DNA of 64,000 nucleotides, from contig JAXGZF010000004.1 in the NCBI GenBank assembly GCA_040771865.1, forward strand, positions 415,916 to 479,915. Reading direction: 5' to 3'. The notes under the pieces were generated by a model that saw nothing but the letters and a program-made list of their open reading frames with translations, was not told the DNA's origin and searched no databases. How positions within the stretch are numbered: position 1 is the first letter of the stretch; each line of letters begins with the position of its first letter. This DNA is from Desulfobacterales bacterium (GTDB taxonomy: Bacteria > Desulfobacterota > Desulfobacteria > Desulfobacterales > UBA2245). Made by a program: the position numbers and the translations under genes. This document shows, piece after piece, positions 58,026-63,812 of this stretch.

Positions 58026-59354
58026 ATGCAGCGTGCGCATTCCGGCATGAAGGGGTTTGCGGTCGTCTGGACCGGCCAGTTCATATCGCTTCTGGGCACC
58101 GCGATGACCACCTTCGCCCTCACGCTCTGGGCCTATGAAACCACCGGGAAAGCCACGCCCCTGGCCCTGATCGGCTTTTTCTTCCTTCTGCCCATGGTTG
58201 TGTTCGGACCGTTTATCGGCGTCGTAGTGGACCGAAGCAACCGGAAGCTGATGCTGATGGTCAGCGATCTGGCGGCGGCGGCGATCACCCTGATGGTTCT
58301 GGCGCTGCATGCGGCGGGCCGCCTCGAGATGTGGCACCTGTATCTCACCTCCTTTCTGGCCGGCGCATTTCAGGGGTTCCAGTGGCCCGCCTGTTCGGTG
58401 GTCGTCACCCTGATGCTGCCCAAGGATCAGTACGCCCGGGCCAGCGGCATGCTGGAAATGGGGAGCAACGCATCCTATGTATTCGGACCCCTTGCCGCCG
58501 GCGCCCTGATCGGCCCCCTGGGGCTGGAAGGCATACTGGTCATCGACCTGTTGACCGCGATTCTGGCTGTCGCGGCCCTGATGTTCGTTCGCATTCCCCA
58601 GCCGGTCTTTCCGGACAGCTCCCCGGATCCGGAAGAAAAATGGGTTCAGCAGATTTTCTTCGGTTTCAGATACATATTTTCGCGCAAAAGCCTGCTGGGG
58701 CTTCAGACAGTTTTTCTGGGCGCCAATTTTTTCAGCGGGCTGTCCTTTGCGGTGATGGCGCCCATGATTCTGGCCCGAACCGGAAACGACGAACTGGTCT
58801 ATGGAACCGTGCTTTCCACCGGCGCCGTCGGCGGCGTGATCGGCGGGCTGGCGATGGGCCTCTGGGGCGGTTCGCGGCGGCGGATTCACGGCGTGCTGCT
58901 GGGATGGTTCTGCTCGGGCATTCTGGGCGACCTGGTGCTCGGAATCGGCCGAAGCGCGCCGGTCTGGATGGCCGGCGCCTTTCTGGGCGTTTTCTTCAGC
59001 CCGATGAGCTACGGCTGCAACCAGGCGATCTGGCAGGCCAAGGTGCCGCCCCACATTCAGGGCCGGGTGTTCACCGCCCGCCAGTTTATCGCCCTGTCCG
59101 TGCTGCCCCTGGCCAGCCTGGCGGCCGGCCCCCTGTCGGATCAGGTGCTGGAGCCGGCCATGGCTGCGGGCGGTTTTCTCGAACCGGCGTTCAAATGGCT
59201 GACGGGGTCGGGCCCCGGCGCCGGCATGGCCCTGCTGTTCGTGTTCAGCGGCATTCTGGCGGCACTGACCGGCCTGGCAGGCTATCTGTTTCCGATGATC
59301 CGGCAGGTCGAGGACATTCTGCCGGATCACGACCATTCTCCCGGTTCCGCCTAG
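58026..59354 (+). CDS. MFS transporter (DHA3/MefA-like)
   Basis: WTGQFISLLG, GVVVDRSNRK, QGRVF; about 12 TM segments. Confidence 0.93.
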   Translation: MQRAHSGMKGFAVVWTGQFISLLGTAMTTFALTLWAYETTGKATPLALIGFFFLLPMVVFGPFIGVVVDRSNRKLMLMVSDLAAAAITLMVLALHAAGRLEMWHLYLTSFLAGAFQGFQWPACSVVVTLMLPKDQYARASGMLEMGSNASYVFGPLAAGALIGPLGLEGILVIDLLTAILAVAALMFVRIPQPVFPDSSPDPEEKWVQQIFFGFRYIFSRKSLLGLQTVFLGANFFSGLSFAVMAPMILARTGNDELVYGTVLSTGAVGGVIGGLAMGLWGGSRRRIHGVLLGWFCSGILGDLVLGIGRSAPVWMAGAFLGVFFSPMSYGCNQAIWQAKVPPHIQGRVFTARQFIALSVLPLASLAAGPLSDQVLEPAMAAGGFLEPAFKWLTGSGPGAGMALLFVFSGILAALTGLAGYLFPMIRQVEDILPDHDHSPGSA

Positions 59355-59478
59355 GCCATTCACATCCAGCTGTCGAAAACAAAACATTCATGGTATTTTG
59401 ATTTTCAGAAGGGCCGTTCGGCCATTCTGAGGGCCGGTGCCCTCGGGCCGGTTCGAGCAGCGTTCAGGGAGATGCGCC

Positions 59479-59733
59479 ATGGATACGGAAATTTTCGGAG
59501 AATACACGGTCTGGGTCCTGATCACCGTCGCACGGGTCGTACTGATCGTTGTGATCCTCTACTATGTTCTGAGAGGGGTTCTGAACAGATGGAAGCAGCG
59601 GAATACCCGCCGCCAGCGCCGGACGGCGGTCTGCCCCCACTGCGGCTGGCAGGGAGATGCGGGTATTCATGCCGGCAGGTGCCCCCGGTGCGACCGTTTC
59701 CTTGAGGACCGGAAGATCGACGGAGAAACCTGA
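59479..59733 (+). CDS. Small membrane protein with C-terminal zinc ribbon
   Basis: One TM, basic linker, CPHC...CPRC; TGATG coupling to the next gene. Confidence 0.65.
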   Translation: MDTEIFGEYTVWVLITVARVVLIVVILYYVLRGVLNRWKQRNTRRQRRTAVCPHCGWQGDAGIHAGRCPRCDRFLEDRKIDGET

Positions 59734-60789: not shown

Positions 60790-60936
60790 ATGAACCCATG
60801 GTTTGTTCTGGTTCTGGGCCTGGCCCTGACGGTGATCGGCGCTCTGAGCCCGTTCGGCAGCTTTGGCGGCCTGTTTCTGATCGCCGGGGCCGTCACGCTG
60901 ATCAACGCGGCGCGCAGCATATTCCGGCGAAAATAA
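60790..60936 (+). CDS. 48-aa two-TM small membrane protein (not in ORF track)
   Basis: MNPWFVLVLGLALTVIGALSPFGSFGGLFLIAGAVTLINAARSIFRRK*; GGAGA upstream; GC3-rich codons. Confidence 0.6.
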   Translation: MNPWFVLVLGLALTVIGALSPFGSFGGLFLIAGAVTLINAARSIFRRK

Positions 60937-61020
60937 TCCTGTTTTCCCGCCCGCGGAAATGAACCGGACAACACCCGCCCGAGTGCGAGGCGGAACCTTG
61001 AAAATTTTTTCATAAACCGG

Positions 61021-61058
61021 TTGACAGGAAAAGCAATGTATCATAATGATACTTATTG
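61021..61058 (+). promoter_or_regulatory. TA promoter with operator palindrome
   Basis: TTGACA at 61021; GTATCAT-A-ATGATAC (61038-61052) overlaps the -10 region. Confidence 0.75.
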
Positions 61059-61065
61059 AAACGGA

Positions 61066-61407
61066 ATGAATAAACGAAAACCCCACACCGATTTGAATGC
61101 ATTCAAGCAGCTTTTCCGCCGCGGTACGGCGAGAGTTATCACCGCAACGGCGCGGAAAGGGGCTGTCGCCATGGGTTTCATGGATGAGGAGGATATTCTT
61201 TCGGTCGTTAACCGCCTGGGTCCCGAACACTTCTACAAGTCCATGACCATACACGGCAGCCACAAGATCTGGCAGGATGTGTACCGGTACCAGGATGACC
61301 AGGATAATGCCCTTTACATCAAATTGCAGCTGTCTTCGGACAGCCGGAAAGCCGTTCTGATTCAGATGAAAAAAGACGAGGGAAAAGATGAACAGGATAA
61401 AGCTTGA
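61066..61407 (+). CDS. mqsR: MqsR-family endoribonuclease toxin
   Basis: FYKSMT....H.IWQDVY; LYIKLQ. Confidence 0.92.
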   Translation: MNKRKPHTDLNAFKQLFRRGTARVITATARKGAVAMGFMDEEDILSVVNRLGPEHFYKSMTIHGSHKIWQDVYRYQDDQDNALYIKLQLSSDSRKAVLIQMKKDEGKDEQDKA

Positions 61408-61915
61408 TTGCCCGGTCTGCGGCGCCGGTACGCTGACCCGGCATGTCGGAACCGAAACCTTTGAATACCGTGGGCAGACCCGGACGATTCCGGATTACGC
61501 GACCTGGGTGTGCGATGCATGCGGAGAGTCCGTCGTCGACGCCGGGTCTCTGAAAGCCTCGGGCAGAATATTGAAGGATTTTCAGCGCAAGGTCGACGGC
61601 CTTCTGACCGGTCAGCAGATCAGGGAAATCCGCGCCAGGCTTGGCCTCACCCAGGAGCAGCTGGCCGACATCATCGGCGGCGGACTGAAAAGCGTGGCCC
61701 GCTACGAGTCCGGGCAGGTATGCCAGAGCCGGGGCATGGACAACCTTCTGCGCATTCTGGATGCCTATCCGGAAACGCTCAGGATCATTCAAAGAAAGGA
61801 ACGGCCGGTTCAGGAATCGGCCAAGGTCGTTTACATCGAGGATGCGAGAAACAAAAATGCCTATCGATTGGCGGGCAGGACCTTTGAAACAGGGGAGGTC
61901 GGTTATGGCTTCTAG
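61388..61915 (+). CDS. mqsA: MqsA-family antitoxin (Zn ribbon plus HTH) with about 40-aa C-terminal extension
   Basis: CPVC...CDACGE; IR..LGLTQEQLA..IGGG..S.ARYESG; overlaps the toxin gene by 20 nt. Confidence 0.92.
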   Translation: MNRIKLDCPVCGAGTLTRHVGTETFEYRGQTRTIPDYATWVCDACGESVVDAGSLKASGRILKDFQRKVDGLLTGQQIREIRARLGLTQEQLADIIGGGLKSVARYESGQVCQSRGMDNLLRILDAYPETLRIIQRKERPVQESAKVVYIEDARNKNAYRLAGRTFETGEVGYGF

Positions 61916-62408
61916 ATTCCAGATCGGCTCGATTCGCCTGGTCGAGGCTCATTTTTCACTCAACCGTCAGTTCAAATGGGAAAGCGGAAAGCCGGTCGAA
62001 ATTCCGCAGAACGTCGAGATCAAATATCAGCAGATCAAGGAAAAAAGCATCCGCGTGCTCGTCTCGGTTTCCTCTGTTTCCGATCAGCAGCCTTTCCGGT
62101 TTTCCGTCGCCTGGGAAGGTTCGTTCGTGTTCGAAGAAAAACCCCGGAAAGAAGAACTGGAGCGCATCGCCCACATCCATTGCGCATCCATCATGTTTGC
62201 CTATATTCGAGAGTCCGTGGCCGACCTGACCCGGCGCGCCAGCCTGCCCGCCCTGAATCTGCCCCCTTATAATTTTGCCGCCCTGTACGAGGAAAACAAA
62301 AAATCGGCGCTTTCGGCAACCCCGCGAAAAATCCGCAAAAAGCCGGAGGCCTTGCAGAAGCCGTCCGCCCCGAAGCAGCCGAAGGACGCGAAGATTCAAG
62401 AGAGCTGA
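61905..62408 (+). CDS. SecB-like chaperone (TAC chaperone)
   Basis: F.F.V..EG.F, C.SIMFAYIRESVADLTRRA.LP.L.LPP.NF.ALY (SecB-like C-terminal pattern); RBS GGAGG; overlaps the mqsA stop. Confidence 0.88.
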   Translation: MASRFQIGSIRLVEAHFSLNRQFKWESGKPVEIPQNVEIKYQQIKEKSIRVLVSVSSVSDQQPFRFSVAWEGSFVFEEKPRKEELERIAHIHCASIMFAYIRESVADLTRRASLPALNLPPYNFAALYEENKKSALSATPRKIRKKPEALQKPSAPKQPKDAKIQES

Positions 62409-62834
62409 TTCACCCCGAAGCAAAGATCGAAACGAAGGTATTCTCTGCAATGCCTTCGTGAACTGTGCGCCCTTGAGGTTCATAAAACAGCCGGAAGCAG
62501 GTTTTTTCAAAAGCCTGCCAATTATTCGATCTACGGCCCCAGAGCGGCGGCCCTTTGCCGCATCGAATCATTCAGAACTCCGTTGCTAATCCGCATTGCA
62601 TAATCGATGTTCAGGAAAACAGCCTGCGCCGGCCGATTTTCATTGACAGCCGCGCTCTTAGGTTCTACATAAAACTCTTTGCTAACCATTACTTAATCTG
62701 GTTTTCGCGCCGGGCTTTCCATGAACCACCCCTGTTCGACCCGCGCCTTCCGCATGCATTTTCGCATCGCGGCTTGAAGACGCCGCCCGACGATTGGTAT
62801 ATTTCAGCAGGCATTGTTCTTTGATGGAGGCCGT

Positions 62835-63812
62835 ATGTCGAACCATCTGGTATGGGAGCGTTTCTGCTGGTTTGATTCCCAGGTAAGGGCCGCGAAATAT
62901 CCCAACGCAAGCCGCCTGGCCGAACACTTCGAACTGTCTTCCAAGACCGCCCGGAGGGACATCAATTTTTTGCGAGACCGTATCGGCGCCCCCCTGGAAT
63001 ACTGTCCTGTCCGCAAGGGGTACTACTATACGCAGGATTCCTTCGAACTTCCCCGGCTTCAGGTGAGCCCGGAGGAGGTGCTCTCCATCCTGCTGGCAAA
63101 ACGCCTGCTCTCCCGTTCCGCCGACGGCATGATCAGCAGGTCCATTCAGATGTTCGGCAGGAAGCTTTTAGCCCAGGCCGGCCATCCGGGGCTGACCGAA
63201 ACCGCGATGGACGAATCCTTTTCCGCCGTCTGGAACGCCTATTCTCCAACCCAGTCCCAAATCTTTCAAAAAACCGCCGACGCCCTGCTTTGCGGCAAAC
63301 CCCTTGAATTCACCTATCGTTCGCCGGCCGGGTGGCAGACCCGACGCATCGTCGAGCCGCACCACCTCCAGCACTACATGGCCAGCTGGGTCCTGATCGC
63401 CTGGTGCCGAATGCGAAACGACTGGCGGAAGTTCTACCTGGCCCGCATCAGCGATCTTGCGGTTCTGGACGAGCCGTTCGAGAAGAAGCCCGCTCCGGTC
63501 TGGAACCATCTTCTCGAAGGGGGCTTCGGCATCTTTCAGGGAAACGACCTGGTGGAAGTGACGCTGCGGTTTACTCCCTTTCGGGCCGGATGGGTCCGCG
63601 AACAGAGCTGGCATCCGGACCAGAAAATGCAAACTCTTGCCGACGGAAGCCTGGAAATGACTTTGCCGGCGGCTGATTTCCGGGAAATCCGAATGCGCAT
63701 ACTTCAGTTCGGCGCGGACGTGGAGGTGATCGGCCCGGCGGAGTTGAGAGACGAGGTGGCCGAAGAGGCCCGGCGGTTGACGGCCTTGTATGAAAAACAG
63801 CCGAATGAATAA
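62835..63812 (+). CDS. HTH-WYL-WCX transcriptional regulator
   Basis: LAEHFELSSKTARRDI wHTH; F.Y, R.VEPH.L, WVLIAWC..RNDWR.F.L.RI; ILQFGADVEVIGP.ELR; RBS GGAGG. Confidence 0.95.
   Translation: MSNHLVWERFCWFDSQVRAAKYPNASRLAEHFELSSKTARRDINFLRDRIGAPLEYCPVRKGYYYTQDSFELPRLQVSPEEVLSILLAKRLLSRSADGMISRSIQMFGRKLLAQAGHPGLTETAMDESFSAVWNAYSPTQSQIFQKTADALLCGKPLEFTYRSPAGWQTRRIVEPHHLQHYMASWVLIAWCRMRNDWRKFYLARISDLAVLDEPFEKKPAPVWNHLLEGGFGIFQGNDLVEVTLRFTPFRAGWVREQSWHPDQKMQTLADGSLEMTLPAADFREIRMRILQFGADVEVIGPAELRDEVAEEARRLTALYEKQPNE

Follow-up and report, generated by a model that had tools for sequence, protein, structure and literature searches.

The window analysed here is a 64,000-nt stretch of the genome of a Desulfobacterales bacterium (assembly GCA_040771865.1, contig JAXGZF010000004.1, hereafter C4), and close to its end it very probably carries an intact and autoregulated toxin-antitoxin-chaperone (TAC) operon of the MqsRAC type, encoding an MqsR-family toxin, an MqsA-family antitoxin and a SecB-like chaperone. 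An earlier note, drawn from the letters of the sequence alone, had proposed such a tripartite module, and the protein families, key residues, the C-terminal extension of the antitoxin, the fold and the grouping of the chaperone as well as synteny all agree with this proposal. Since the Pfam and NCBIfam matches are joined by a shared order of the genes at 17 of 22 related loci in other genomes (collected in a scan with the chaperone alignment, one genome per species), the module goes far beyond what could be attributed to chance.

The three genes lie on the plus strand and overlap one another: mqsR (positions 61066-61407, 113 amino acids) shares 20 nt with mqsA (61388-61915, 175 amino acids; predicted to encode both antitoxin and repressor), which in turn shares 11 nt with the gene of the SecB-like chaperone (61905-62408, 167 amino acids). 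They are preceded by a sigma-70-like promoter on the same strand at 61021-61050 (TTGACA at 61021-61026, an 18-nt spacer and AATGAT; 10 of 12 matches in the promoter scan), and Shine-Dalgarno-like sites are present in the operon. Judging from this arrangement, a single promoter serves three translationally coupled genes. The two overlaps and the TTGACA promoter that the earlier note described are thus borne out by the open reading frame (ORF) coordinates and the promoter scan, while the profile searches in Pfam and NCBIfam recover the families it had named, namely an MqsR RNase, an MqsA with a zinc ribbon and a helix-turn-helix (HTH), and a SecB-fold protein. Behind the stop codon of the chaperone gene, a pair of hairpins (62432-62459 and 62497-62518, plus strand) might form a weak terminator region; the RNA fold of 62432-62518 reaches -35.5 kcal/mol (z = -2.45), the hairpins lack a canonical T-run behind them and are missing from the output of the terminator scan. 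Base composition across the operon is not distinctive (GC 0.52-0.57).

The toxin matches the Pfam family MqsR_toxin (PF15723) with an E-value of 1.5e-28 and 99.5 bits, against a cut-off of 26.2 bits, and E. coli MqsR (PDB 3hi2) aligns with it at 4.5e-11. By mutagenesis, Lys56 and Tyr81 of E. coli MqsR are reported to be strictly needed for cleavage (PMC9636575). In an alignment of 13 sequences, E. coli K-12 MqsR among them, these two residues correspond to K58, which is invariant, and Y84, which is nearly so, while Q70 and K102 correspond to E. coli Q68 and K96. At the level of family and residues, the toxin is an MqsR-type RNase that has its catalytic lysine and tyrosine in place. PADLOC gave no match for it, nor was it recognised as a CmdT-type ADP-ribosyltransferase. 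In the corresponding locus of Desulfobacterium sp. N47 (L007, positions 2153-2478), the closest named relative, mqsR matches were found in two frames (residues 1-87 and 82-109) beside intact mqsA and chaperone genes, a pattern that points to a frameshift or to faulty assembly, with an altered C-terminus of that toxin.

The antitoxin matches MqsA_antitoxin (PF15731; 1.5e-26, 93.5 bits) as well as HTH_3 and HTH_31 in Pfam, the MqsA family TIGR03830 in NCBIfam (1.3e-41, 141.4 bits against a cut-off of 61.8), and the MqsA structure PDB 3gn5 (3.8e-14 across residues 6-133). It is 29% identical to E. coli MqsA. The zinc-ribbon cysteines C8, C11, C42 and C45, arranged in two CxxC motifs, are invariant in 19 sequences, and the HTH is conserved too. 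As E. coli MqsA stops opposite residue ~136 of the window protein, the latter has about 39-42 extra residues at its C-terminus, the stretch of residues ~137-175 being encoded at 61796-61912. Such an extension was found in all 19 aligned MqsA homologues, and it is variable among them, yet rich in aromatic residues, with spaced aromatic and hydrophobic positions. AlphaFold2 predicts the tail to be disordered (pLDDT of 33-43 for residues 139-175, compared with block means of 84-95 for residues 11-130). By comparison with published TACs, we take the extension to be a candidate chaperone addiction (ChAD) element. The ChAD of MqsA in the TAC of V. cholerae is reported to comprise residues 136-176 (Bordes 2016, PMC5105189).

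The third protein matches the Pfam family SecB (PF02556; 1.2e-15, 58.1 bits) and the PADLOC model PD-T4-9_C, that is CmdC (1.3e-10). Its AlphaFold2 model (pLDDT 83.5) consists of four strands, a long helix and another helix at the C-terminus, and Foldseek gave TM scores of 0.82 to E. coli SecB (1qyn) and 0.72 to M. tuberculosis Rv1957 (5mtw). With a SecB protein encoded behind a toxin-antitoxin (TA) pair, it might be assumed that it is simply the general export or holdase chaperone of the host, standing after an ordinary two-gene MqsRA whose antitoxin is not addicted to it. The gene is indeed the sole SecB-family match in a genome that is 98.3% complete, public annotations label its relatives 'protein-export chaperone SecB', and the TAC chaperones of M. 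smegmatis and M. tuberculosis are reported to complement an E. coli secB mutant (Sala 2013). However, the protein stays below all SecB equivalog cut-offs of NCBIfam (102.8-277), its best score being 55 bits against a required 181 and its TIGR00809 score 47.4 against 102.8. The acidic cluster by which E. coli SecB docks to SecA is reported to consist of D20, E24 and E77 (Guillet 2019); at these positions the window protein has E/S/S, so that two of the three acids are gone, while housekeeping rows have D/E/E in three cases out of three. All 19 clade members lack an acid at both the second and the third of these positions. The net charge is +9 in the window protein and positive in 18 of the 19 members of the clade, compared with -8 to -14 in three housekeeping SecB proteins, and the tail is rich in Lys, Arg and Pro and about 19 residues longer than in most relatives.

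Phylogeny and distribution speak against a general SecB as well. In a small chaperone tree of 25 rows, from which the V. cholerae, E. coli C496_10 and CmdC chaperones were left out, E. coli SecB and two gammaproteobacterial housekeeping genes in secB-gpsA context stand apart from the remaining 22 rows, at a split supported by 100/100. The window gene thereby groups with TA-linked chaperones and apart from housekeeping SecB, which is in line with how the earlier note read the third gene; its nearest neighbour in the tree is the MqsRAC chaperone of Desulfobacterium sp. N47. Any SecB-family match was found in 14 of 201 genomes of the host's class, the window's genome included, and all of these scored at most 76.6 bits, compared with 175-178 bits for the two secB-gpsA genes. 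With a SecB homologue in so few genomes, this lineage exports its proteins without SecB. The genomic setting differs too, since E. coli secB lies in the order yibN-grxC-secB-gpsA and the window chaperone follows mqsA instead, as it does, with MqsA directly upstream, in 18 of the 22 loci. Finally, the copy in a sister species is truncated. Taken together, this makes the general chaperone a very improbable explanation, and we regard the third protein, on the strength of its profile scores, residues and tree position, as one that has the SecB fold, has mostly lost the SecA-docking patch and is not housekeeping SecB.

Autoregulation of the operon is suggested by the sequence GTATCATAATGATAC at 61038-61052, a perfect 15-bp palindrome with 7-bp arms and a 1-nt centre that overlaps the -10 region and is here taken as the candidate MqsA operator (palindromic, hence without strand). 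The genome (2.98 Mb) contains it a single time, with 0.007 occurrences expected. The same 15-mer, with A or T at its centre, precedes mqsR at 16 of 17 full R-A-C loci, the 17th having only 49 nt of upstream sequence, and it is kept although the proteins are only 41-65% identical. In most related loci, a TTGACA is visible at the equivalent spot relative to the palindrome. At the single locus that lacks the toxin gene (L011), the palindrome is absent. For E. coli mqsRA, two AACCT-N3-AGGTT palindromes have been described (PMC4894380), and Asn97 and Arg101 of E. coli MqsA are reported to be DNA-contact residues (PMC5422877). The position of Asn97 is taken by an invariant lysine (K101) in the clade studied here, and Arg101 is kept as R105. 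A change from Asn to Lys at this position fits an operator that is unlike the E. coli one. MqsA would presumably bind at the candidate palindrome and repress its own operon there.

As to the relatives of the cassette, a word-based search gave 46 chaperone homologues among 85 candidates, with Desulfobacterium sp. N47, Smithella, Syntrophus aciditrophicus and 'Deltaproteobacteria' metagenome-assembled genomes (MAGs) as named sources, and an exhaustive search gave 833 cluster representatives at E <=1e-3, 117 at <=1e-10 and 3 at <=1e-30. Apart from the 17 loci with the order mqsR-mqsA-chaperone, the 22 loci comprise one with mqsA and the chaperone only (L011), one cut at the start of its contig (L023), one HigB-like(Gp49)-HTH-SecB TAC (L026) and the two secB-gpsA housekeeping genes (L027 and L028). 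The chaperone is therefore linked to TA genes in other genomes as well, just as the earlier note would lead one to expect, and the 11-nt overlap of mqsA and the chaperone gene is kept in 17 of 18 loci. Chaperone searches by tblastn gave one weak partial match in a phage collection (33.9% over 35% of the query) and one in a plasmid collection (38.3% over 28%, in an annotated plasmid secB). Neither match points to an origin of the cassette from a mobile element.

Some of these loci deserve a description of their own. Distant SecB-like genes after a Gp49/HigB-like toxin and an HTH antitoxin, found in L026 (2084-3420) and in the host relative G013 (L004, 1504-2729), belong, by their gene order and families, to HigBAC-type TACs; the SecB-like match of G013 holds one in-frame TGA. 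In a Syntrophus MAG (L011, 540-3450), the toxin-less mqsA-chaperone pair lies directly behind a pair of genes for an ABC-ATPase and a DUF4276 protein, which match HEC-01A/B of PADLOC (1.8e-62 and 4.1e-13) and occupy the place of mqsR. A record of an uncultured Methanobacterium MAG (L017) contains an MqsRAC of bacterial type, with a GmrSD/HEC-05-like gene and then hmaB after it, on a 36-kb contig that was binned as archaeal. The tree neighbour of this chaperone is a copy from a 'delta proteobacterium', and the archaeal placement points to mis-binning or transfer.

Decay of the cassette can be followed in the sister species G001. Of 40 host relatives, only two gave a chaperone match, this congeneric genome and G013. 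G001 keeps the CNNM gene and the small-peptide gene that precede the operon in the window, and a 775-bp deletion (window positions 60948-61722) has then taken the promoter with the operator, mqsR and some 111 mqsA codons. What remains encodes the MqsA tail and the first ~113 codons of the chaperone, at ~60-72% protein identity. Past this remnant homology ends, and a PPi-phosphofructokinase-like gene and smc come next; in the window's genome these two genes lie on another contig (C3, 49.9-55.8 kb). It follows from the remnant that the cassette was present in the common ancestor and that it is dispensable. That a toxin-less remnant alone survives in G001 fits the logic of an active toxin-antitoxin pair, but it does not prove it.

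Such decay raises the question of whether the window copy, too, might be a non-functional relic, whose ORFs look intact and are no longer expressed or active. Related copies do decay (the G001 remnant and the two-frame mqsR of Desulfobacterium sp. N47), and the distribution is patchy, with the two matches among 40 relatives. On the other hand, all ORFs of the window operon are full length, the catalytic, zinc-binding and DNA-contact residues are intact, and the promoter, the operator and the Shine-Dalgarno-like sites are in place. Near-identical copies are found in several metagenomes, from anaerobic digesters and wastewater (word shares of 0.85, 0.83 and 0.49). In two metatranscriptomic libraries of one study, contigs with at least 99% identity cover 61087-61545, 61312-61611 and 62041-62262, i.e. 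parts of all three genes, the uncovered parts and the flanks carrying no information. Since DNA can be present in such libraries, this gives only a weak hint that the operon is transcribed, and it speaks but weakly against a relic. All in all, we find a relic hardly credible at this locus and consider an intact operon the far better description.

By its neighbours, the operon is associated with defence systems. Following a gap of about 400 bp and a separate promoter-like site (62774-62803), the chaperone gene is succeeded on the plus strand by a gene for an HTH-WYL-WCX regulator (62814-63812; Pfam WYL 3.5e-18 and WCX 2e-21, PADLOC WYL 5.1e-42), and then by a type I-C cas3 with HD and helicase parts (PADLOC Cas3c, 8.1e-126; C4:480284-481904, which is equivalent to window position ~64369 onward), cut by the end of the contig 2 kb beyond the window. 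The earlier note had drawn attention to the WYL neighbour. The gene itself is real, but as a partner of the TAC it does not hold: the WYL protein and Cas3 are covered by a single Cas3c model of PADLOC, for which reason the regulator belongs with cas3. A WYL match by tblastn was found at none of 24 related TAC loci, and a role of the regulator as TAC partner was ruled out on this count. No Cas1-family match was found in the assembly, and no CRISPR-like array on C4 by a k-mer scan; contigs C1, C2 and C13 and the initial 15.4 kb of C3 contain no cas genes either. The rest of the CRISPR-Cas locus is lost to the contig end, being either unassembled or binned out. As the earlier note had stated, the cassette has no phage genes around it: none of phage type were seen in the 11 kb upstream or in the 3.5 kb downstream to the end of the contig.

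In the relatives, it is often an Hma system that stands next to the cassette. An HmaA-type helicase lies directly upstream in 8 of 18 related loci, an HmaB (DUF1156) methylase downstream in 9, both in 6 and at least one of the two in 11; in two further related loci, the upstream side is truncated where the contig ends. In L017, it is the HEC-05-like GmrSD gene that separates the TAC from hmaB. In the window's own genome there was no HmaB match and there were only two weak helicase matches, so that the cassette is not embedded in Hma there. According to a guilt-by-embedding preprint, 62.7% of Hma systems hold embedded genes, many of them defences. The words 'MqsR', 'SecB' and 'chaperone' are absent from the main text of this preprint, whose supplements may list such families among the 434 that it counts as embedded. 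A role of the cassette as a defence sensor is what we would propose, and the Hma context of the relatives strengthens it.

The mechanism that we envisage for the operon is the one published for TACs (Bordes 2016, Guillet 2019, Vassallo 2022, Mets et al. preprint), transferred to this locus. The SecB-like chaperone would hold the ChAD tail of MqsA, a tail that, unless held, would make the antitoxin apt to aggregate and sensitive to proteases. MqsA would neutralise MqsR and, alone or together with the toxin, would repress the operon at the palindrome over the -10 region. If the chaperone were titrated away, most plausibly by an aromatic-rich structural protein of a phage during infection, MqsA would be lost, and freed MqsR would cleave mRNA and stop growth, which would amount to abortive infection. 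The cassette itself is, in our reading, a portable accessory unit. E. coli MqsRAC is reported to protect against T2 (Vassallo 2022, PMC9519451), and the HigC chaperone is described as sensing lambda gpV via aromatic patterns that are common to ChAD (Mets et al. preprint).

Several observations weigh against the operon working in this way. Toxicity, neutralisation, dependence on the chaperone, operator binding and antiphage activity are all properties that we infer for this locus. The extension of MqsA has no sequence similarity to characterised ChADs; published ChADs, however, are reported to share no similarity with one another either (Bordes 2016, PMC5105189). Its terminal Tyr-Gly is conserved, and since the codons of these two residues coincide with the chaperone ATG inside the 11-nt overlap, this conservation may be an effect of dual coding and not of chaperone binding. 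A complex prediction with four copies of the chaperone (residues 1-140) and MqsA residues 128-175, made without controls, scored 0.02 against a mark of 0.32 and, unlike the other points of this paragraph, speaks neither against binding nor in favour of it. When GCU, the target site of E. coli MqsR, was counted in 13 operons and compared with synonymous-codon shuffles, no avoidance was found (53/75/67 observed, 51.6/77.3/64.1 expected), so that these sites give no hint on the cleavage specificity of the toxin. As the genome has no Hma system and the chaperone no close relative in the phage and plasmid collections, the association with defence is one of neighbourhood only. Furthermore, we know of no phages of this host.

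An explanation that dispenses with sensing is that the operon is a selfish addiction or stabilisation cassette which guards the DNA around it (the CRISPR-Cas island here, the Hma operons in relatives), its chaperone having no sensing role. The flanking genes are compatible with this, given that 11 of 18 loci have an hma gene as neighbour on one side or both and that cas3 lies beside the window copy, and so are the losses: G001 lacks the toxin gene along with the entire downstream island, only harmless remnants being left, in L011 the toxin has been lost and only the A-C pair remains behind the HEC-01 pair, and in L007 mqsR, lying in two frames, has perhaps been lost as well. Still, a two-gene TA would suffice for stabilisation. 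Because the coupled third gene is kept with the 11-nt overlap in 17 of 18 loci, the chaperone step itself appears to have been selected. Tested TACs, an MqsRAC among them, protect against phages, and it should be added that addiction and phage sensing are not mutually exclusive. We therefore rate pure addiction as unlikely, although clearly less so than a relic or a general SecB, and continue to favour an MqsRAC-type operon with a chaperone-dependent antitoxin.

A more far-reaching idea, which we put forward only tentatively and consider rather doubtful, is that of a self-contained, horizontally mobile 'second-line' sensor cassette that has its own invariant operator, repeatedly lodges in or beside DNA-targeting immune systems (between hmaA and hmaB in relatives, next to WYL and the type I-C cas3 in the window's genome) and is functionally coupled to them. 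If this were true, MqsR would fire when a phage that escapes or inhibits the first-line system titrates the chaperone with the structural proteins it makes. In that case, the chaperone would owe its basic tail and its missing SecA patch to adaptation to phage clients, and MqsRAC would be an Hma-embedded defence that is absent from the main text of the guilt-by-embedding preprint.

Upstream of the operon, the 11 kb contain core genes, which encode an Rnf complex, an AMP-dependent acyl-CoA ligase, a major facilitator superfamily (MFS) transporter, a CNNM protein and a membrane peptide of 48 aa. The ORF of this hydrophobic peptide (60790-60936) and a 98-aa ORF (59437-59733) with one hydrophobic segment and a CxxC...CxxC pattern both lie beside the CNNM gene, are also found in the sister species and have no Pfam family. 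The MFS transporter of the window (442 aa, 58026-59354) is represented in G001 (L006, contig C17, 7812-8042) by a 76-aa ORF made up of the N-terminal ~45 and the C-terminal ~25 residues, a second internal deletion less than 2 kb from the TAC remnant.

To our knowledge, all tested TACs come from enterobacteria, Vibrio, Geobacter, Methylomonas and mycobacteria. TACs are among the few toxin-antitoxin classes whose phage-sensing logic has been worked out, and the locus described here leaves the established understanding of TAC function unchanged. It extends the MqsRAC type to lineages of anaerobic digesters and sediments that have no housekeeping SecB. New are the invariant 15-bp candidate operator, distinct from that of E. 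coli and accompanied by an Asn-to-Lys change at a DNA-contact residue, the basic chaperones, devoid of a SecA patch, of a lineage that has no housekeeping SecB, a decay series of intact, toxin-less and remnant loci (the remnant being in a sister species), and recurrent embedding in Hma, which supports a defence role by context.

TACs of the MqsRA type have already been published and tested (Bordes 2016, Vassallo 2022). Closest to the window operon are therein Vcho-TAC of V. cholerae RC385 (PMC5105189) and MqsRAC of E. coli C496_10 (PMC9519451), which have the same MqsR-MqsA-SecB-like order and a dedicated chaperone; as far as reported, the MqsA extension of Vcho-TAC (residues 136-176) and that of the window protein (~137-175) are equal in length and position. 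In contrast to these two, the window operon belongs to a distant lineage, its nearest named relatives being Desulfobacterium, Syntrophus, Smithella and Nitrospirota MAGs, its host has no housekeeping SecB, and its chaperone has a basic tail rich in Lys and Arg. E. coli K-12 MqsR/MqsA has in common with the window the toxin fold, the catalytic Lys and Tyr, the zinc ribbon and the HTH of the antitoxin and, presumably in the case of the window, autoregulation at a promoter palindrome. Unlike the window operon, it has neither a chaperone gene nor a C-terminal extension, and its two AACCT-N3-AGGTT palindromes and Asn97 stand against a single GTATCAT-A-ATGATAC and a lysine.

HigBA1-SecB(TA) of M. 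tuberculosis (Rv1955-1957, PDB 5mtw) resembles the window operon in architecture and in the presumed mechanism of a ChAD and a SecB-like tetramer, and its chaperone is likewise reported to have the SecA-docking acids replaced (Guillet 2019). It differs in that its toxin and antitoxin belong to the HigB and HigA families, and the match of its chaperone profile is marginal (E-value 0.0028 over 44 residues). CmdTAC (PD-T4-9), the CmdC model of which matches the window chaperone at 1.3e-10, serves together with HigBAC as the published model of chaperone-mediated phage sensing. The CmdTAC toxin, however, is an ADP-ribosyltransferase and that of the window an RNase, the antitoxins are unrelated, and E. 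coli CmdTAC and HigBAC are borne by prophages, whereas the window cassette is chromosomal and lies beside cas3. Housekeeping SecB (E. coli b3609), finally, has the fold of the window chaperone (TM 0.82), but the two are set apart by the equivalog cut-offs, by acidic patch and acidic tail, by gene context and by place in the tree.

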